The notes under the pieces were generated by a model, which did no database searches, was not told the DNA's origin, and was given only the letters and a program-made list of their open reading frames with translations. From contig NC_006624.1 in the NCBI RefSeq assembly GCF_000009965.1, positions 600,001 to 632,000 of the forward strand: a DNA stretch of 32,000 nucleotides, in the 5' to 3' direction. The stretch is from Thermococcus kodakarensis KOD1 (lineage in GTDB: Archaea > Methanobacteriota_B > Thermococci > Thermococcales > Thermococcaceae). Each line of letters opens with the position of its first letter. The first letter of the stretch is position 1. The translations under genes and the position numbers were made by a program. Shown one piece after another: positions 9,604 to 21,588 of the stretch.

Positions 9604-9655
9604 AAACATTTTTGTTTAACAAAAACACTTTTGTTAGCGCAAACTATTTAAACAA
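9604..9655 (+). promoter_or_regulatory. GAPN promoter element P1: AT-rich alternating half-sites TTTTGTT-T-AACAAAA-ACAC-TTTTGTT plus TATA TATTTAAA (9645-9652)
   Basis: About 44 of 52 positions are identical to 11216-11267 by manual alignment. The first 15 nt are identical to 20710-20724. Confidence 0.7.
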
Positions 9656-11207: not shown

Positions 11208-11215
11208 TTTGTTTT

Positions 11216-11267
11216 AAATGTTTTTATTTAACAAAAACACTTTTGTTTACTCAAAATATTTAAAAAA
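11216..11267 (+). promoter_or_regulatory. Chelate-ABC operon promoter element P2 (copy of P1) with TATA TATTTAAA (11257-11264)
   Basis: The sequence is AAATGTTTTTATTTAACAAAAACACTTTTGTTTACTCAAAATATTTAAAAAA. It starts 9 nt after the GAPN stop. Confidence 0.7.
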
Positions 11268-11296
11268 TAGGTTCCCATCTTTGTCCGGTGGCTGTA

Positions 11297-12931
11297 ATGA
11301 AGAGGGCAGTTTCAGTTCTCATCCTCAGCCTTCTCCTTTTCGGGGTGATGGCCAGCGGGTGCATAGGGACGAAAACAACATCGAACACCTCAACAACCTC
11401 AAGCGGAGCAACAGCCACTTCTCCGACAGCCTCAAGCCAGTTATCCACCTCTACTGCATCCTCCAACGTTGTCCCGCTTACCCTCGTTGGGCCCGATGGC
11501 TCTGTTAAAACGCTAACCCTTTCAGACCTCAAGAGCCTCCCGCAGACGGTTGGAAAGGGCGGCCTGAAAACAAAGAAGGGGAGCATCAAGAGGATTGGAA
11601 CTTACAAGGGCGTTTCTTTGAAGGATTTGCTCTCAAAGTTCGGCTGGTTATCAAAGAACTACCGTTACGTAATAACTGCCGCCGATGGGTATTCAATAAC
11701 CGCTGACTACGGCTTCATATTTGGAAAGGGATTGGACACCTACGACGAAAAGGGGAACCCGATCAACGGCTCCGTGATTCCCATCCTCGCCTACGAGTAC
11801 AACGGGGAACCGATAGAATTCACCTTGGACGGTAAGGTGTATCCCCTCAAGCTCGTCCTCGTCGGGGACGAGACGATAGTAACCCCTGGGAACCGCTGGG
11901 TCAAGGCCGTTGTGAAAATAGAGGTTGTGAAGGCCGAAACACCGGGAGAAAGCGAGAACACTGGCTATGGGGAAGTGAAAGATTTTGCCAACAGAACCGT
12001 TAAGGTGAAGAGCCCGCCGGCGAGGATAGTCTCACTCTACGGACTGGTCACGCAAATGATATACTTTCTCGGAGTTGAGGACGGCAAGAAAGTCGTGGGA
12101 AGCACTCCGCTGGCAATAAACGACGCTTTTATCGGGCTTCTGGATCCTGGCGTTAAGAACAGGATGGTCTTCGTCGGAAACCCGAGGAATGCGAACGTTG
12201 AAACCGTCAAGTCCCTGAACCCGGACGTCGTTTTCACTGCCTACTGGGGGAGCGAAAAGATAAACGAGGAAATAGAGAGCCTTGGCATTCCAGTTATAGC
12301 CCTGAACCTTGAGACGGTCGATGGATACCTCAAGGGGCTCCTGACAGTGGGCAAAGTTCTTGGAAAGGAGGAAAAAGCAGAGAAGGCAATTTCGTATTAT
12401 CGCTCCGCTGTTGACTTCGTCACAAACAGGACATCAAAGCTTAAAGAGAGGCCCAGGGTTCTTCTCGTTCAGTACAGCATGAAGGATAAGGCGTTCAAAG
12501 CTCCAGGCAAGGAGTACTTCCAGAACAGATTAATAGAGATGGCAGGTGGGGAAAGCGTTTCCTCGAACCTTCCAGGTGGCTGGAACGTAGTGAACGTCGA
12601 GCAGGTCGCGAAGTGGAACCCAGATGTGATAATCGTCGTCAGCTACTCCCCCAAGAAACCATCGGCTAAGGTTAAGGAAGAAATACTAAACGACCCCGCG
12701 TGGAAGGGCATAAAGGCCGTTAAGGAGGGCAGGGTCTACGCGATGCCGAACGATGGCGAAAGCTGGGATTACCCCGCTCCAAAGTGGGTTCTCGGCCTCT
12801 ACTGGCTCGCCAAGGTTCTCCACCCGGAGCTCTTCGGCGACCTCGATGTCAGAGCCAAAGCCGACGACTTCTATCAGAAGTGGTACGGGATAGACCCAAA
12901 TAAGGTGGAGATAACCGGTGATATGCCGTGA
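11297..12931 (+). CDS. Lipoprotein: molybdopterin-oxidoreductase-like domain fused to an FhuD/BtuF-type (iron-chelate/cobalamin class) periplasmic binding domain
   Basis: The signal and lipobox are MKRAVSVLILSLLLFGVMASGC, followed by a Ser/Thr-rich linker. The N-domain pattern is TLSDLKSLP...YKGVSLKDLL...AADGYS...ILAYEYNGEP...PLKLV...RWVKAVVKIEV. The C-terminal part resembles class-8 binding proteins. The ATG at 11297 follows GGTGG; an alternative GTG is at 11288. Confidence 0.7.
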   Translation: MKRAVSVLILSLLLFGVMASGCIGTKTTSNTSTTSSGATATSPTASSQLSTSTASSNVVPLTLVGPDGSVKTLTLSDLKSLPQTVGKGGLKTKKGSIKRIGTYKGVSLKDLLSKFGWLSKNYRYVITAADGYSITADYGFIFGKGLDTYDEKGNPINGSVIPILAYEYNGEPIEFTLDGKVYPLKLVLVGDETIVTPGNRWVKAVVKIEVVKAETPGESENTGYGEVKDFANRTVKVKSPPARIVSLYGLVTQMIYFLGVEDGKKVVGSTPLAINDAFIGLLDPGVKNRMVFVGNPRNANVETVKSLNPDVVFTAYWGSEKINEEIESLGIPVIALNLETVDGYLKGLLTVGKVLGKEEKAEKAISYYRSAVDFVTNRTSKLKERPRVLLVQYSMKDKAFKAPGKEYFQNRLIEMAGGESVSSNLPGGWNVVNVEQVAKWNPDVIIVVSYSPKKPSAKVKEEILNDPAWKGIKAVKEGRVYAMPNDGESWDYPAPKWVLGLYWLAKVLHPELFGDLDVRAKADDFYQKWYGIDPNKVEITGDMP

Positions 12932-13875
12932 GGGGGCTTAAAGGCATCTTTCTTTTTTTCATGGTTATCATTCTGATATCGCCCTTCGTGGGTAGAATGC
13001 TCTTCAATCCGCTCTCGATGAGCGATCTCGATAAAACCATCCTCCTCCAGGTCAGACTCCCGAGGGTGGTTACTTCCCTCCTTGTCGGGGCTTCCCTTTC
13101 GCTTGCAGGTTTAACCTTCCAGAACGTCTTCAGGAACCCCCTGGCCGGGCCGAACCTCCTTGGGGTCACGAGCGGCTCGGCCTTCGGGGCGGTTCTGGCG
13201 ATACTCCTCTCTGCGGATCCTTACGTCATACAGATATCGGCCTTCCTCCTCGGCCTGCTTGCCGTTGGGGTGGTGTGGCGGCTTTCCCGCCTCGTTGGGA
13301 ACGGAATCCTCGGCTTAATTCTGGCCGGAATAGCGGTCTCGGCTTTCTTCTCCGCCCTCGTGGGAATGGCGAAGTATCTGGCCGATCCGTACGACAAACT
13401 GCCCGCGATAGTTTTCTGGCTCCTGGGAAGCTTCGCAGGCTTGCGGTGGGATGACGTGAGGATTATGCTGGTGCCACTCGTTGTGAGCATAGTTGGGATA
13501 ACGCTCCTCCGCTGGCCCCTGAACGTCATCAGCCTTAGTGAAGAGGAGGCTAGGGGGCTCGGAGTGAACGTGAGGCTCTACAGGGGGATTTTCATAGCCC
13601 TCGCCGCCCTCGGTGTTTCGGCATCGACGGCGATGGCTGGGATGATAAGCTGGGTTGGACTCGTGAGCCCCCACGTAGCCCGGCTGAGTGTTGGACACGA
13701 CACGAGAACGCTCGTCCCGGCAAGCGCCCTCGTTGGGGCGTCTCTTCTCCTAGTTTGTGACGACGTTGCGAGGAGCGTAACTACCTTTGAGGTTCCCCTG
13801 GGAGTCGTTACTGCCCTGATAGGCGCCCCGACCCTCATAATAATCCTGCGGAGGGGGATCTATGCTAAGGGTTGA
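12928..13875 (+). CDS. FecCD/BtuC-family ABC transporter permease
   Basis: 315-aa polytopic membrane protein with typical FecCD segments (LLVGASLSLAGLTFQNVFRNPLAGPNLLGVTSG, GLVSPH). It has a 4-nt overlap with the binding-protein gene. Confidence 0.85.
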   Translation: MRGLKGIFLFFMVIILISPFVGRMLFNPLSMSDLDKTILLQVRLPRVVTSLLVGASLSLAGLTFQNVFRNPLAGPNLLGVTSGSAFGAVLAILLSADPYVIQISAFLLGLLAVGVVWRLSRLVGNGILGLILAGIAVSAFFSALVGMAKYLADPYDKLPAIVFWLLGSFAGLRWDDVRIMLVPLVVSIVGITLLRWPLNVISLSEEEARGLGVNVRLYRGIFIALAALGVSASTAMAGMISWVGLVSPHVARLSVGHDTRTLVPASALVGASLLLVCDDVARSVTTFEVPLGVVTALIGAPTLIIILRRGIYAKG

Positions 13876-14623
13876 GGGGCTGGGCTTTTCATACGGCAGT
13901 AGGGAAGTCCTCAGGAACGTTACCTTTGAGCTTAAAAAGGGCGTTGGCTGTCTCCTTGGGCCAAACGGCGCCGGAAAAAGCACCCTCCTTAAGTGCATAG
14001 CCGGAATCCTCAATGGGAACGGTAGGATAACGCTCAACGGTACTGAGCTTTCCAGGTTGAGATTGAGGGAGCGTACGAGGCTCGTAAGCTACTCCCCCCA
14101 GGAATTCTCGCTGACGTTTCCGTACACGGTCTTTCAAACCGTGCTGATGGGCAGGAACCCCCACATCGACCCCCTGAGCGGGCCGGGAAAGGTGGACGAA
14201 GAGATGGCGATGAAGGCCCTCCGCACCCTCGGACTTGAGAACCTCGCGGAGAGACCCTTCGGCGAGCTCAGTGGAGGCCAGAAAAGGCTCGTAATGATAG
14301 CCAGAACGCTCGCGCAGGGTGGAGAGCTTTTCCTCTTTGACGAGCCCACTTCGTTCCTCGACTTCAGGAACCAGCACCTCGTTCTCAGCGTTATCAGGAA
14401 GCTCTCAAAGGAGAGAACAGTGCTGGTCTCACTCCACGATCCCAACCAGGCCCTGACCTTCTGCGATACGGTTTTCCTCCTGAAAGACGGGGGGATAATA
14501 GCGAGCGGAGAACCGGCTGAAGTTCTCAACGAGGAGAATCTGATGGAGTTATACAGGATGAAAGTGAAGCGGTTTAAGGCCGACGGCGGCTTTTTCATAT
14601 ACCCCCTGGAGGTGGTTGGATGA
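13862..14623 (+). CDS. ABC transporter ATP-binding protein (FepC/BtuD type)
   Basis: Walker A GPNGAGKSTLL, signature LSGGQKRLVMIA, Walker B LFLFDEPTSFLD and H-loop SLHD. Confidence 0.9.
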   Translation: MLRVEGLGFSYGSREVLRNVTFELKKGVGCLLGPNGAGKSTLLKCIAGILNGNGRITLNGTELSRLRLRERTRLVSYSPQEFSLTFPYTVFQTVLMGRNPHIDPLSGPGKVDEEMAMKALRTLGLENLAERPFGELSGGQKRLVMIARTLAQGGELFLFDEPTSFLDFRNQHLVLSVIRKLSKERTVLVSLHDPNQALTFCDTVFLLKDGGIIASGEPAEVLNEENLMELYRMKVKRFKADGGFFIYPLEVVG

Positions 14624-15381
14624 AAAAAGTCCTCTCCCTTCTGCTCGTCCTCATGGCATGCGGGTGCATCGGGGCTTCCGAAAAACAGACGCCCAGCAAT
14701 GTTTCAACACCAAGTTATTCAAAAATTTCAACCTATCCCTTGGGAAATCCTCCAAACTGGTCAAACTGGACACTAGCTGTTCTGAATGACAACAGAACCT
14801 ACACGTGGGAAGAACTCTCAAAACTATCGAACGACACGATGAGAATACCGGATTTGAACCTCGGAAGAACCGTCGAGTGGAGGGGAGTTAGACCTCAGAG
14901 ACTTGGAAGGGGAGACTTCGTTACGGTAATAAATGAAAACGGGGAAGTGGTGAGCATACCCTATAACGTCTCAATGCTTCTGGCCATCTACATGGACGGG
15001 AAGCCGATGTCAACCCCGATAAGGCTCGTGGCGAGTCTCTCCTACGGCTGCCGGTGCAACTGGCTTCCTGGAATAAGGTTAGTGGACTTCGTGAACCGCT
15101 CCAAGGCCTTGGGGGTCTACGGCGAGGTGAACAACGAACTCTGGCTGTCCCCAAGGAGCTTTGCCGCCCTTGGAAACGGCTCGGTGCACCTGAACGAACT
15201 GCTCGATAAAGCTGACGTTAGGCCAATCGCCAGGAGGGTGATCTTCATTACACCCAACGGGGAGCTTCCATACAGCCTCGCCAAGATAAAGAAGCTGAAC
15301 CCGTTGGTTGTTTTTGAGGGGAAGTTTAAAGTGCCCTCACTGGGTATAGAAGACCTAAGAGGAATAAGGCTTGAGGGGTGA
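14620..15381 (+). CDS. Secreted lipoprotein with molybdopterin-oxidoreductase-like domain, many N-x-S/T sequons
   Basis: The lipobox is MKKVLSLLLVLMACGC. The segment TWEELSKL...VEWRGVRPQRL...LLAIYMDGKPM...PIRLV...WLPGIRLVDFV parallels the N-domain of the 11297 protein. There is a 4-nt overlap with the ATPase gene. Confidence 0.6.
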   Translation: MKKVLSLLLVLMACGCIGASEKQTPSNVSTPSYSKISTYPLGNPPNWSNWTLAVLNDNRTYTWEELSKLSNDTMRIPDLNLGRTVEWRGVRPQRLGRGDFVTVINENGEVVSIPYNVSMLLAIYMDGKPMSTPIRLVASLSYGCRCNWLPGIRLVDFVNRSKALGVYGEVNNELWLSPRSFAALGNGSVHLNELLDKADVRPIARRVIFITPNGELPYSLAKIKKLNPLVVFEGKFKVPSLGIEDLRGIRLEG

Positions 15382-15385
15382 TTGA

Positions 15386-16123
15386 ATGCTGCTTTCGGAG
15401 ATCAAGAAAAAGGCTTTGAATCTTGCAAACGGGCTTGAGCTTTTAGATTTCGGCTTTGCCCTGCCCTACACGTGGGTCTTAATTGAAGGTCCTGAAGGAA
15501 AATCCCTAGGCGTTGCAATGACCCTCCCGGAGGAGGTTCAGAGGTACACCAACTCCATAAGTGAGCCTTCCATCGAGGCCTTCATTGAAAGGATCGACAG
15601 CCTGAACGTCATCGAGAGAACCCTCGGGATAGCGGCGGTAAACGCGGTCTCCCAGTACCACCTCGACGTCTCAGACCTTCCAGATGTTGACGTGGTTGAG
15701 CTTGTTGAAGGCTTCAGTGAGGTAGCAGTGATAGGCAACATGCCACCCGTTGTCAGGGCACTCCGCGAGAAAGGAGTTAAGACCCTCGTTTTCGAGCGGA
15801 ATCCAAAGCTCTGGGACAGGGAGACGCTCAGCGACGCTCTGGAATACATTCTCCTCCCCGAGGTTGAAGCGGTCATTGTCAGCGGCTCAGCACTGGTTAA
15901 CGGAACGCTTGAGATGATCCTCGACCGGGCGAAAAAGGCGGAACTGGTAATCCTGACCGGCCCAACTGCCCAGATACACCAGGAGCTCGTTAAAGGAACT
16001 GGGATTACTCACCTCGCGGCGATGAAAGTGATAGACCTTGAAAGGGCGCTCCTCGGCCTCAAGCTCGGCTCCTTCAGGGGCTTTGAGAAGGGGAACAGGA
16101 AGTACGTGGTGGAGGTTCCGTAG
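15386..16123 (+). CDS. DUF4213/DUF364-like protein (putative heavy-metal chelation, Rossmann-like)
   Basis: 245 aa. The family assignment is from memory of the pattern (GxAxT ... IGxxxP ... VxxSGSxLVNGT). The gene is last in the chelate ABC operon. Confidence 0.5.
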   Translation: MLLSEIKKKALNLANGLELLDFGFALPYTWVLIEGPEGKSLGVAMTLPEEVQRYTNSISEPSIEAFIERIDSLNVIERTLGIAAVNAVSQYHLDVSDLPDVDVVELVEGFSEVAVIGNMPPVVRALREKGVKTLVFERNPKLWDRETLSDALEYILLPEVEAVIVSGSALVNGTLEMILDRAKKAELVILTGPTAQIHQELVKGTGITHLAAMKVIDLERALLGLKLGSFRGFEKGNRKYVVEVP

Positions 16124-16633
16124 TTATTTTGCGAACCTCCCATCATCTTTTGCCTCTGGGAGCTTGTGAACGTTTTCTTCAAGCCAGCCTGTTCTCACTC
16201 CCTCTCTGTAGTCAAATTCTGGCACGTAGGGCTTTATATCCAGGAGGGGAGTTCCATCTAGGACATCAACATCCTCAACTATCAGGACGTTTCCGCGCCT
16301 TTCAACGAGTCTCACTATCGAGATGCCGATGGGATTCGGGCGCGCGGGTGCCCTCGTGGCGAACACGCCATGGTAGTTCTCGTCCATGTATGGCCTTACT
16401 AGGAGACTCTTGAACCTCGCCCTGTGGAAGTGGTAGATCAAAATTACGTGGGAGAATCCCTCAATGTCCTTCAGTCCTTCCTCAAACTCGGGAAACACAT
16501 CAACGGTTCCTCTGATTCCCCTCGCCGCAGAGGCCTGTATGGGGACGTCTTTTGGCTCCTTGAAGGGGCTGTGAATAACTCCAATCGGGCGATAGCATAT
16601 TTCTTCCAAAGGATAGCTTTTGGCCTTGCTCAT
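16124..16633 (-). CDS. trmO: TsaA/TrmO-like tRNA methyltransferase (YaeB/UPF0066 family)
   Basis: The segments IGVIHSPFK ... FSHVILIYHFH ... RPNPIGISIVRL ... DGTPLLDIKPY are typical of the TsaA-like domain. Confidence 0.7.
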   Translation of the reverse strand: MSKAKSYPLEEICYRPIGVIHSPFKEPKDVPIQASAARGIRGTVDVFPEFEEGLKDIEGFSHVILIYHFHRARFKSLLVRPYMDENYHGVFATRAPARPNPIGISIVRLVERRGNVLIVEDVDVLDGTPLLDIKPYVPEFDYREGVRTGWLEENVHKLPEAKDDGRFAK

Positions 16634-20487: not shown

Positions 20488-20609
20488 CTAAAATGCTCCA
20501 AAATAGGTAGCATAGGTCAGTTGAAACCAAAAATGGATGGGTTTGAAAAAGAACTAAAAGAGTTTGAAATCACGAACAAGGCCACAGATTTGTTCCTTTT
20601 TTCGATTTC

Positions 20610-20623
20610 CGTGCATATGCACG
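20610..20623. promoter_or_regulatory. Perfect 14-bp palindrome CGTGCATATGCACG, followed by GCTTAAAAGC (TATA-like)
   Basis: It has the same GTGCATATGCAC core as 25229-25242 and is related to 31834-31847 and 7671-7684. It lies about 150 nt upstream of the modA start. Confidence 0.5.
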
Positions 20624-20709
20624 AATTAGGGCTTAAAAGCTTTTTCTTGTATCTTCTCTATTTTCAACTCCAAAACTCTGAGGCCTTGGTAAACACTTCC
20701 ACTTACTAT

Positions 20710-20740
20710 AAACATTTTTGTTTATCCAAAATGTTTAAAT
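20710..20740 (+). promoter_or_regulatory. modA promoter element P3: short version of P1/P2 with TATA GTTTAAAT
   Basis: AAACATTTTTGTTTA is identical to P1 positions 9604-9618. The following CCAAAATGTTTAAAT matches P2's TCAAAATATTTAAAA in 12 of 15 positions. The internal 18-nt unit is absent. Confidence 0.6.
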
Positions 20741-20769
20741 TCCAAATCCAAAACTTCTTCGGTGGTTCG

Positions 20770-21588
20770 ATGAGAGGCGTTAAAATCCTACTACTCGTCG
20801 GGGTTTTGGCTGGTATCCTCCTCGTTGCAGGATGCATCGGTTCTGAAAACGCCCCCGGGAGTTCGGAGAAAAAGCCCTTTGCGGGCCAAACGGTCGTCGT
20901 CTGCTCCGGGGCCGGCCTCATGAAGCCAATGGAGGAGCTGATAGGGATGTTCGAGAACGAGACCGGCGCCAAGGTTGAGGTCCACTACGGCGGGAGCAGC
21001 GAGATCTTCGGAATTCTTCAAACGACCTGCGGCTGCGACGTCTTCGTTCCAGGGGCGTGGTACTACACCCAGCAGGCGGCCGAGAGGGGCTACATCCTCA
21101 ACGGCACCGTGAAGAACGTCACCTACCACATCCCTGTCATAGCGGTTCCAAAGGGCAACCCGAAGGGCATTCACTCCCTCGAAGACCTCGCGAAGCCAGG
21201 AGTCAGGGTTGTCCTCGGCGACCCGAAGGCGGCCGCCATAGGGAAGGTGTCCCGGAAAGTCCTCGAAAAGAATGGCCTGTGGGAGGAAGTGAAGCCGAAC
21301 GTCGTGACTTTCACGCCGACGGTGAACCAGCTGCTCATCTACATAGCGACTGGTCAGGCGGATGCGGCAATAATCTGGGAGGACATGACGACCTGGGCGC
21401 AGTCAAAGGGCAAGATCGAGGTCGTTGAGATACCTTCGGAGCAGAACATCATCAAGACTATTCCCACGGCGGTAACGGTCTGCGCGGAGAAGGACGGCCA
21501 CCTTGAGGTTGCTAAAGCCTTCAACGGGTTCATAGCAAACCACACCGAGATCTGGGAGAAGTGGGGGTTCAGGCCATGGCGGGGCTGA
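20770..21588 (+). CDS. modA: Molybdate/tungstate ABC transporter substrate-binding lipoprotein (ModA-like)
   Basis: The ATG at 20770 follows GGTGG. The lipobox is MRGVKILLLVGVLAGILLVAGC. The pattern VVVCSGAGLMKPMEEL...VHYGGSSEIFGIL...DVFVPGA...IAVPKGNP is ModA-like. Confidence 0.75.
   Translation: MRGVKILLLVGVLAGILLVAGCIGSENAPGSSEKKPFAGQTVVVCSGAGLMKPMEELIGMFENETGAKVEVHYGGSSEIFGILQTTCGCDVFVPGAWYYTQQAAERGYILNGTVKNVTYHIPVIAVPKGNPKGIHSLEDLAKPGVRVVLGDPKAAAIGKVSRKVLEKNGLWEEVKPNVVTFTPTVNQLLIYIATGQADAAIIWEDMTTWAQSKGKIEVVEIPSEQNIIKTIPTAVTVCAEKDGHLEVAKAFNGFIANHTEIWEKWGFRPWRG

Follow-up and report, generated by a model that had tools for sequence, protein, structure and literature searches.

A MolBC-like importer operon with SUOX-fold lipoproteins and a DUF364 protein in Thermococcus kodakarensis, possibly linked to molybdenum or tungsten

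To our knowledge, the described uptake routes for molybdenum and tungsten are only ModABC, WtpABC, TupABC, and MolBC-A, each with a single soluble or tethered binding protein. The archaeal WtpABC and ModABC importers belong to the type I class and use an SBP_bac_11 binding protein. MolBC-A of Haemophilus influenzae (HI1470/HI1471/HI1472) is a type II molybdate/tungstate importer with a three-part layout that includes a FecCD-fold permease and a class III binding protein. Here, we describe a five-gene operon, TK0706–TK0710, of Thermococcus kodakarensis KOD1. It lies in a 32,000-nucleotide stretch of contig NC_006624.1 (positions 600,001 to 632,000), referred to as the window, in which all coordinates below are given. 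TK0706–TK0708 share the layout, the permease fold, and the binding-protein class of MolBC-A, but differ in being archaeal, in having as binding protein a lipoprotein with an extra SUOX-fold domain, and in sharing their operon with genes for a lipoprotein with two SUOX-fold domains and for a DUF364 protein. By analogy, the operon may import molybdenum or tungsten, the same putative metal theme as in WtpABC and ModABC.

The SUOX fold is the molybdenum cofactor (Moco) domain of the sulfite oxidase family, including chicken sulfite oxidase, SorA, SoxC, and YedY/MsrP. It also occurs in PruR of Agrobacterium, Vibrio, and Klebsiella (7kom, 7kp2, 7kos, and 7rkb), a small secreted cysteine-less protein of about 140–160 residues, which places the pterin ring between a Tyr and a Trp and binds the pterin by a hydrogen bond from an Asn (PMC11194511). 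DUF364 genes neighbor Fe, W, Mo, and V transporters, and a flavin or pterin ligand was predicted from a DUF364 structure (PMC2954201). In Methanococcus maripaludis, the DUF364 gene lies within a mod operon, and this operon is cofit with nifH (bioRxiv 10.1101/2024.03.05.583561). The sole assayed DUF364 enzyme, the methyl-azetidine-carboxylate synthase Orf5 of Streptomyces, is encoded in a secondary-metabolite cluster and cyclizes a derivative of S-adenosylmethionine (SAM), methyl-SAM, to an azetidine amino acid (PMC12930334).

Architecture of the operon and its SUOX-fold domains

The five plus-strand open reading frames (ORFs) of TK0706–TK0710 form a single chained operon at 11297–16123 (Table 1). 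At the first three junctions, neighboring genes overlap by 4, 14, and 4 nt in turn, and 4 nt separate TK0709 from TK0710. The positions and the translational chaining agree with a preliminary description of the window, which was made from the letters and their translations.

The N-terminal domain of TK0706 was modeled by AlphaFold2 (AF2) on residues 59–216 with an alignment of 45 homologs, and the model has a mean predicted local distance difference test score (pLDDT) of 97.4. A Foldseek search with the model returns PruR (7kom) as the top match, followed by sulfite oxidases. In VIA-align, 128 of 134 residues are aligned with 7kom at a Z score of 15.5. The Z scores are 13.7–15.5 over the PruR structures, 14–15 for SoxC, chicken sulfite oxidase, and SorA, and 10.7 for YedY, so that the sulfite oxidase family spans 10.7–14.9. 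The domain also exceeds the Pfam threshold for Oxidored_molyb (30.6 bits, cut-off 24, residues 93–220), covering only the C-terminal two thirds of the profile (PF00174). A plain sequence search against PDB sequences returned chance matches only, and a family profile was needed. As judged from the predicted model, the Mo-pterin-binding (SUOX/YedY) fold that had been proposed for this domain is confirmed.

The domain lacks the hallmarks of an enzyme. Residues 59–216 contain zero Cys, and the former Mo-ligand position is Gly-Ser in a profile alignment via PruR. No conserved ligand Cys was found among the 45 homologs, whose sole frequent Cys column corresponds to a buried helix position. Unlike members of the sulfite oxidase family, TK0706 and TK0709 possess no Mo-ligand Cys, no dimerization domain, and no heme or YedZ partner, and they carry Sec/lipobox rather than Tat signals. 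The lipoboxes are ASGC in TK0706 and ACGC in TK0709, and neither signal contains a twin arginine, as read from the translations. The absence of the Mo-ligand Cys, together with Sec export, rules out that the SUOX-fold domains of the operon are Moco enzymes. The preliminary description had spoken of molybdopterin-oxidoreductase-like domains outside the cytoplasm. The fold and the extracytoplasmic location, the latter indicated by the lipobox signals, are retained, but the enzyme is not: the ligand Cys whose conservation had been left to be checked is missing, and the operon contains no enzyme for the extracellular processing that had been envisaged.

The positions conserved in the N-domain family include polar and aromatic residues. 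Among the 45 homologs, Asp75 (domain numbering) is invariant (45/45), and Tyr111 is present in 44, Tyr77 and Tyr83 in 41 each, Trp146 in 38, Tyr94 and Asp95 in 36 each, and Lys148 in 34. The Asp75-Gly-Tyr77 segment aligns on the N-x-Y motif of PruR in a hidden Markov model alignment, and the Trp was matched to the PruR Trp by motif position, not by superposed structure. The positions of the pterin-sandwiching Tyr and Trp would thereby be alike, with Asp instead of Asn, and by analogy the domain may bind a pterin. The two proteins share 18–24% identity. In contrast to PruR, the TK0706 domain lacks the PW motif, where it has Gly-Ser, and contains a family-specific F-x-T-Y-D loop. Its partners are parts of an ATP-binding cassette (ABC) importer rather than a DcpA-type cyclic di-GMP (GGDEF/EAL) enzyme, and the domain is often found in tandem arrays.

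TK0709 scores 17.8 bits with Pfam Oxidored_molyb, which is under the cut-off. Its residues 49–158 match the N-domain family profile by hhalign (Prob 96–97%, E 1e-10 and 7e-9), and in its ESM Atlas model residues 46–162 match Oxidored_molyb clusters. AF2 of the whole protein from 11 sequences gave a poor model (pLDDT 49.9), of which only the C-terminal domain is usable. This domain, residues 157–253, adopts a shorter SUOX fold in the model, with Z scores of 11.0 to SoxC, 9.9 to SorA, and 9.1 to PruR. Hhalign of the C-terminal domain against the N-domain family profile gave nothing (Prob 1.3%), and its fold is seen only structurally. The preliminary description had recognized a domain of the same kind in this second lipoprotein; the fold is supported, but there are two such domains, and the operon totals three SUOX-fold domains, one in TK0706 and two in TK0709, rather than two. 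None of the three has a Mo-ligand Cys.

A Y-G-C-x-C-N-W motif in TK0709 is invariant across 11 family members. In the hhalign register, CxCNW lies at the loop just before the pocket Trp of the SUOX fold. TK0709 also contains many N-x-S/T sequons. Its homologs occur only in Thermococci, as 11 clusters among 5.8 billion proteins. A relative from a Logan assembly (P0009) was left out of the sub-alignments, as many of its residues are replaced by F, L, or I; this corruption is probably an assembly or base-calling artefact.

The transporter core most closely resembles MolBC. TK0707 matches Pfam FecCD (E 8e-81) and, among PDB sequences, scores 225 bits with 2nq2_A (HI1471, MolB), compared with 173 for FhuB, 157–159 for HmuU/BhuU, and 148 for BtuC. 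TK0708 matches Pfam ABC_tran and scores 138 bits with 2nq2_C (HI1470, MolC) versus 123 with FhuC. The binding domain of TK0706 belongs to Peripla_BP_2 (E 6e-35). Its best PDB matches are 4ovk and 4hn9, structural-genomics proteins whose ligand is not known, and MolA is third (3psa/3psh, E 2e-28) and the best characterized match. CeuE of Helicobacter pylori (Ni) and IsdE are also among the matches. A W-[GD]-Y-P-x-P motif is common to TK0706 and MolA. The binding domain comes nowhere near the cut-off of any NCBIfam model for Fe-siderophore, heme, B12, or F420-0 binding: the scores are 91.6 for IsdE (cut-off 298.65), 48.8 for BtuF (234), 52.6 for the ferrichrome binder (374), and 30 for FepB (205).

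In MolA, the oxyanion is surrounded by K221 and R264, with Y114 and Y301 nearby (recent preprint). These residues were mapped onto TK0706 with a numbering offset of 21, which fits all four. In P0001 numbering, K221 corresponds to Y410, R264 to Y453, and Y114 to W320, and Y301 is kept as Y495. W320, Y410, Y453, and Y495 are invariant in five aligned Thermococcaceae sequences (TK0706 and four orthologs). On sequence grounds, the transporter is MolBC-like, but without preservation of the MolA oxyanion site.

The preliminary description had also predicted a DUF364-like partner, and TK0710 is a genuine member of the family, with Pfam scores of 122.5 bits for DUF364 and 46.4 for DUF4213. It matches 3npg, an uncharacterized DUF364-family protein, at E 1e-100, and its length agrees with the roughly 230–250 residues expected of the family. 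Like Dhaf4260 (3l5o) and 3npg, it contains both Pfam domains, and it is of nearly the same length and sequence class as 3npg.

Table 1. Positions of the operon, its domains and motifs, and adjoining features in the window
Feature	Position	Strand	Description
TK0706	11297–12931	+	Lipoprotein; SUOX-fold domain fused to class III (Peripla_BP_2) substrate-binding domain
TK0706 signal peptide and linker	11297–11461	+	Lipobox Cys22 at 11360–11362, then Ser/Thr-rich stalk of ~33 residues
TK0706 SUOX-fold domain	11462–11935	+	Residues 59–216, 158 aa, cysteine-less, PruR-like
TK0706 family-conserved residues	11684–11692; 11741–11746; 11897–11899	+	DGY; YD; Trp
TK0706 substrate-binding domain	11975–12928	+	MolA/4ovk/4hn9 subfamily
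TK0707	12928–13875	+	FecCD/BtuC-type permease, nearest MolB
TK0708	13862–14623	+	ABC ATPase, nearest MolC
TK0709	14620–15381	+	Lipoprotein with two SUOX-fold domains
TK0709 SUOX-fold domain 1	~14755–15099	+	From hhalign and ESM Atlas
TK0709 C-x-C-N-W motif	15049–15063	+	Cys144, Cys146, Trp148; in domain 1
TK0709 SUOX-fold domain 2	~15088–15378	+	From structural search of the AF2 model
TK0710	15386–16123	+	Cytoplasmic DUF4213 and DUF364 protein
Operon promoter region	11216–11267	+	TATA-like TATTTAAA, preceded by palindrome TTTTTGTT-T-AACAAAAA
TrmO_N-like (UPF0066) gene	16124–16633	−	Pfam TrmO_N E 2e-41; convergent on and abutting TK0710

Genomic company and distribution

In a sister family, five genomes from three genera encode the closest unfused homolog of the N-domain, a lipoprotein of about 181 aa that is 37% identical (profile E 1e-53 to 1e-56). 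Within 100 bp downstream of its gene begins the gene of a second WtpA paralog, which scores 270–297 bits with TIGR03730 (cut-off 242.75) and matches the Archaeoglobus fulgidus ModA/WtpA structure 2onk at E 7e-67. Next come the genes for a two-domain SUOX protein and a TK0709-like protein. The TK0709-like proteins are only about 24% identical overall but keep the CxC motif as GCACNW or GCVCNW. The canonical WtpA of these genomes (376–383 bits) is encoded elsewhere. The SUOX trio is thus conserved, while its binding protein can come from either of two structurally unrelated classes. One of these classes is predicted by family to bind tungstate/molybdate.

A further set of genomes, family f4, contains an operon of TrmO_N, Peripla_BP_2, DUF364, FecCD, and ATPase genes divergent beside wtpA–wtpC, and in 5/8 of its genomes DUF364 and WtpA are no more than 5 kb apart. 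The proximity of DUF364 and WtpA in G094 (5.4 kb) was rejected as an operon, with unrelated genes in between. A complementarity of the T. kodakarensis-type operon with WtpA was also considered, but the comparison does not discriminate: G025, the one genome that has the operon and no WtpA, encodes a different PBP_like_2 binder, and so do other genomes that lack WtpA.

SUOX-fold domains also accompany importers of the energy-coupling factor (ECF) class. In an uncultured Thermoplasmata-like archaeon (metagenome-assembled genome, MAG; CAYPLQ010000019.1, L094 5395–14758), a gene for a 1570-aa protein with seven SUOX-fold repeats is followed by a calcineurin-like phosphoesterase–SUOX fusion, an ECF S-component (ABC_cobalt/YkoE-like)–SUOX fusion, EcfA-EcfA, and EcfT. 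The pair of SUOX and phosphoesterase recurs in a Thermoplasmata MAG (L095).

The N-domain family comprises 426 representative clusters at E ≤1e-3, most of them metagenomic. Many members repeat the domain 2–7 times in tandem and reach lengths of up to 1556 residues, and some also contain cohesin/dockerin, PKD, pilin-like, or FmdE parts. The fusion to Peripla_BP_2 occurs only in the Thermococcus cluster, among the long N-domain matches scanned. One metagenomic protein of 549 aa (P0080) combines an FmdE-like domain (23.8 bits, just over the cut-off) with a C-terminal SUOX-fold domain and is another link to Mo/W-associated proteins. Many Thermococcus genomes also encode a stand-alone Oxidored_molyb protein of about 200 aa (for example L063 7238–7831; Pfam 91 bits), which forms a separate subfamily; its gene lies beside genes for an ABC-2 type exporter, peroxiredoxin, and rubrerythrin.

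Orthologs of TK0706 with 59–69% identity are present in five other Thermococcaceae genomes (G018, G025, G042, G052, and G089), in all of which the fused binding protein and TK0709 occur together. Genes for MoaC and MoaE are present in each of the five operon-bearing genomes. In the genomes fetched with flanks (G018, G025, G042, and G089), the block of binding protein, permease, ATPase, an extra two-domain SUOX gene in some, TK0709, and DUF364 is collinear, and it mostly adjoins a homolog of the radical-SAM gene TK0703. Remnants of the operon are found in G012, G016, G085, G091, and G092. In G012 (L029) the binding-protein and permease genes are fragmentary and the ATPase, TK0709, and DUF364 genes remain, and in G091 (L077), G092 (L079), G085 (L081), and G016 (L091) only fragments of SUOX or TK0709 genes stand beside an operon-type DUF364.

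TK0710 is the sole DUF364 gene of the T. kodakarensis genome. In a maximum-likelihood tree, the operon-type DUF364 sequences of G025, G042, G016, G089, G091, G092, and G085b form a clade with support 99/99, and TK0710 groups (100/100) with stand-alone copies of G027 and G070. The DUF364 gene of G027 lies between a homolog of the methyltransferase gene TK0704 and a beta-lactamase-fold (TK0712-like) gene; TK0704 and TK0712 bracket the same region in T. kodakarensis. By this phylogeny, the transporter block precedes either its own DUF364 paralog or, in T. kodakarensis and G018, the resident single copy. This position before either a dedicated paralog or a resident copy argues for, and does not prove, a functional coupling of DUF364 and the block. 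A TrmO_N-only gene is adjacent to DUF364 in G018 as in T. kodakarensis, and a TrmO_N gene (L071 6587–7060) heads the family f4 operon, in which the ATPase gene is last and wtpABC lies alongside. The short TrmO_N protein may not be a tRNA methyltransferase but may serve these systems as a second partner that binds SAM.

No DtxR-type iron box (≤3 mismatches) was found at the TK0706 promoter (11208–11296). The window contains 14 matches elsewhere, compared with 1.8 expected, and four neighboring promoters carry a box; the surroundings of the operon are iron-themed, with FeoB, iron-box promoters, and IssA. The preliminary description had regarded the system as something other than simple siderophore uptake, and both the lack of an iron box and the siderophore and cobalamin equivalog scores far below their cut-offs bear this out. 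A sigma-70 promoter scan was set aside, as the host is an archaeon.

The operon promoter is a near-copy of the GAPN promoter at 9604–9655, with a long identical block in the alignment. The GAPN gene is thus flanked on both sides by near-identical promoter segments (9604–9655 and 11216–11267), each with TTTTTGTT-T-AACAAAAA and TATTTAAA. G018 has no GAPN at this place: the binding-protein gene comes straight after the methyltransferase gene. It therefore looks as if GAPN was inserted along with a copy of the operon promoter, or the reverse.

A ModA-type operon lies 4.4 kb downstream of TK0706–TK0710. Its binding protein scores 80.5 bits with NCBIfam modA (cut-off 62.5) and is not WtpA; the canonical WtpA of T. 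kodakarensis is encoded elsewhere (G000:C1:12455–13276). The ORF of the ModA-type protein at 20521–21588 (355 aa) was called too long, as a lipoprotein start (MRGVKILLL...AGC) occurs some 83 codons after the called one, near 20770. A 125-residue N-extension of this gene was rejected as an ORF-calling artefact.

Candidate cargo and competing readings

The best explanation is that the operon belongs to recurrent, uncharacterized DUF364-linked gene sets for molybdenum/tungsten acquisition. More specifically, TK0706–TK0710 could be a Mo/W-linked type II (MolBC-A-like) importer with extracellular SUOX-fold capture domains, a tentative reading that we hold at a little short of probable. It is suggested because the permease, ATPase, and binding domain are nearest to MolBC-A among characterized systems, because the SUOX trio accompanies a WtpA paralog in the sister family, and because a related operon of binding protein, DUF364, and FecCD adjoins wtpA–wtpC in family f4. 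It is also suggested by the published company of DUF364, which includes W/Mo transporters and a mod operon, by the lack of an iron box before TK0706 together with the ModA-type operon nearby, and by the way DUF364 follows the transporter block as a dedicated paralog clade or a resident copy. Upon the observed gene order, folds, missing Mo-ligand Cys, Sec/lipoprotein export, block conservation, and genomic company, we infer a ligand, a hand-over, and a DUF364 role. The SUOX-fold domains, on a glycosylated Ser/Thr stalk, would bind W/Mo species, most likely tungstate/molybdate or a thio-derivative in sulfidic vent fluid, and would pass them to the tethered binding domain. The loaded binding domain would dock on the TK0707/TK0708 translocator, and TK0710 would act on the imported species in the cytoplasm.

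Several observations weigh against a molybdenum/tungsten importer. The MolA-type oxyanion site is not conserved, because K221 and R264, the basic residues that hold the oxyanion, are invariant Tyr in TK0706; the pocket looks aromatic. The only characterized cysteine-less SUOX-fold protein, PruR, binds pterins and not metals. ECF importers are vitamin-type, and the SUOX fusions to an ECF S component and a phosphoesterase fit an organic ligand better than an oxyanion. The operon is patchy, being intact in 6/97 Thermococcaceae genomes (T. kodakarensis included) with remnants in about five, and is therefore dispensable. T. kodakarensis already has WtpA and a ModA-type system, and DUF364 is present in 89/96 other Thermococcaceae genomes, mostly without this transporter. 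The functional evidence is all contextual. In addition, Tk0706–0708 are listed, by annotation only, among six annotated iron(III) transport operons of T. kodakarensis (PMC12827226).

A pterin-type cargo stays in play because of the ECF company, because PruR sets a precedent, and because the pocket positions of TK0706 are aromatic. In a system for pterin or pterin-cofactor salvage, the SUOX domains would catch an extracellular pterin (molybdopterin or tungstopterin, a precursor of the cyclic pyranopterin monophosphate type, or another), followed by an aromatic binding domain, BtuCD-like import, and processing by DUF364. Such a system is unlikely, if the least so of the alternatives. PruR is the top structural match, and its pterin contacts (PMC11194511) have putative counterparts in the invariant Asp, a Tyr in 41/45, and a Trp in 38/45 homologs; yet the domain has no PW motif, and a conserved T-Y-D insertion sets its pocket loop apart. 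The binding domain, with Tyr in place of the MolA Lys and Arg and W/Y-rich pocket positions, would suit an aromatic cargo, type II importers typically carry large cofactors, and domain relatives are fused to the YkoE-like ECF S component and the calcineurin-like phosphoesterase. The partner in the sister family, however, is a WtpA-type oxyanion binder, and the five operon-bearing genomes, having MoaC and MoaE, make their own molybdopterin. Pterin cofactors are labile, more so near 85°C, and a pterin importer of this kind is not known, whereas the DUF364 structure paper did predict a flavin or pterin ligand (PMC2954201). The bolder version, a first prokaryotic uptake route for molybdopterin-type cofactors in which surface SUOX copies would catch released W/Mo pterin cofactor or precursor for MolBC-like import and recycling by DUF364, is distinctly unlikely.

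An importer of iron(III), as annotated, or of another Fe, Ni, Co, or Zn complex lies between these two in probability. The SUOX domains would bind the chelate, possibly with a SAM-derived chelator made by DUF364 and TrmO_N, and the azetidine chemistry of Orf5 (PMC12930334) is akin to nicotianamine-type metallophore synthesis, a metallophore link that we infer. Siderophore, heme, and B12 binders make up most of Peripla_BP_2, and CeuE (Ni) and IsdE are among the matches of TK0706, but the scores of TK0706 with the curated Fe-siderophore, heme, and B12 models all fall far short of the cut-offs. Likewise, the neighborhood is iron-themed (FeoB, iron-box promoters, and IssA), but the operon promoter lacks the iron box that four neighboring promoters carry. 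The permease and ATPase are clearly nearer to MolBC than to FhuBC, HmuUV, or BtuCD, the SUOX trio travels with a WtpA paralog elsewhere, and the listing of Tk0706–0708 as an iron(III) transporter (PMC12827226) is an annotation, not an experiment. The preliminary description had favored capture of a metal chelate or a pterin-like compound. Its pterin part has a precedent in PruR (PMC11194511), but its generic chelate theme shifts to W/Mo, because MolBC is nearest and SUOX lipoproteins accompany the WtpA paralog in the sister family. The least probable reading is that the SUOX-fold domains are ligand-free spacers or cell-envelope (S-layer) modules that position an ordinary binding protein, with TK0709 as an unrelated envelope protein. 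The module does sit on a Ser/Thr stalk in TK0706, and large surface proteins that also have cohesin/dockerin, PKD, or pilin-like parts contain it 2–7 times in tandem, a pattern common among structural repeats. Against this, conservation falls on polar and aromatic residues of the pocket (the invariant Asp, four Tyr, Trp, and Lys) and not only on the core, GCxCNW does not vary between two families whose proteins are about 24% identical overall, and the modules recur specifically beside three importer classes.

Implications for metal acquisition in Thermococcales

In a literature search, no paper was found that describes SUOX-fold domains as importer accessories, and for TK0706–0710 and TON_0298–0303 only the annotation list was found. 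What is new is that the MolA-like binding protein of a type II importer is fused to a SUOX-fold domain, that a CxC lipoprotein accompanies it, and that both occur in a genetically tractable model archaeon.

Thermococcales depend on tungsten enzymes. If the molybdenum/tungsten reading is true, a cofactor-less SUOX-fold layer outside the cell would be an unrecognized first step of Mo/W (or pterin) acquisition. The layer accompanies three importer classes: type II in the operon described here, WtpA-type in the sister family, and the ECF class in Thermoplasmata-like archaea. A fold known almost only from enzymes would then gain a second function, after PruR signaling, and the DUF364 protein of 89/96 Thermococcaceae genomes would gain a testable context. 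Because T. kodakarensis KOD1 offers routine gene-deletion genetics and well-studied tungsten enzymes, the class as a whole can probably be tested most practically on its copy.

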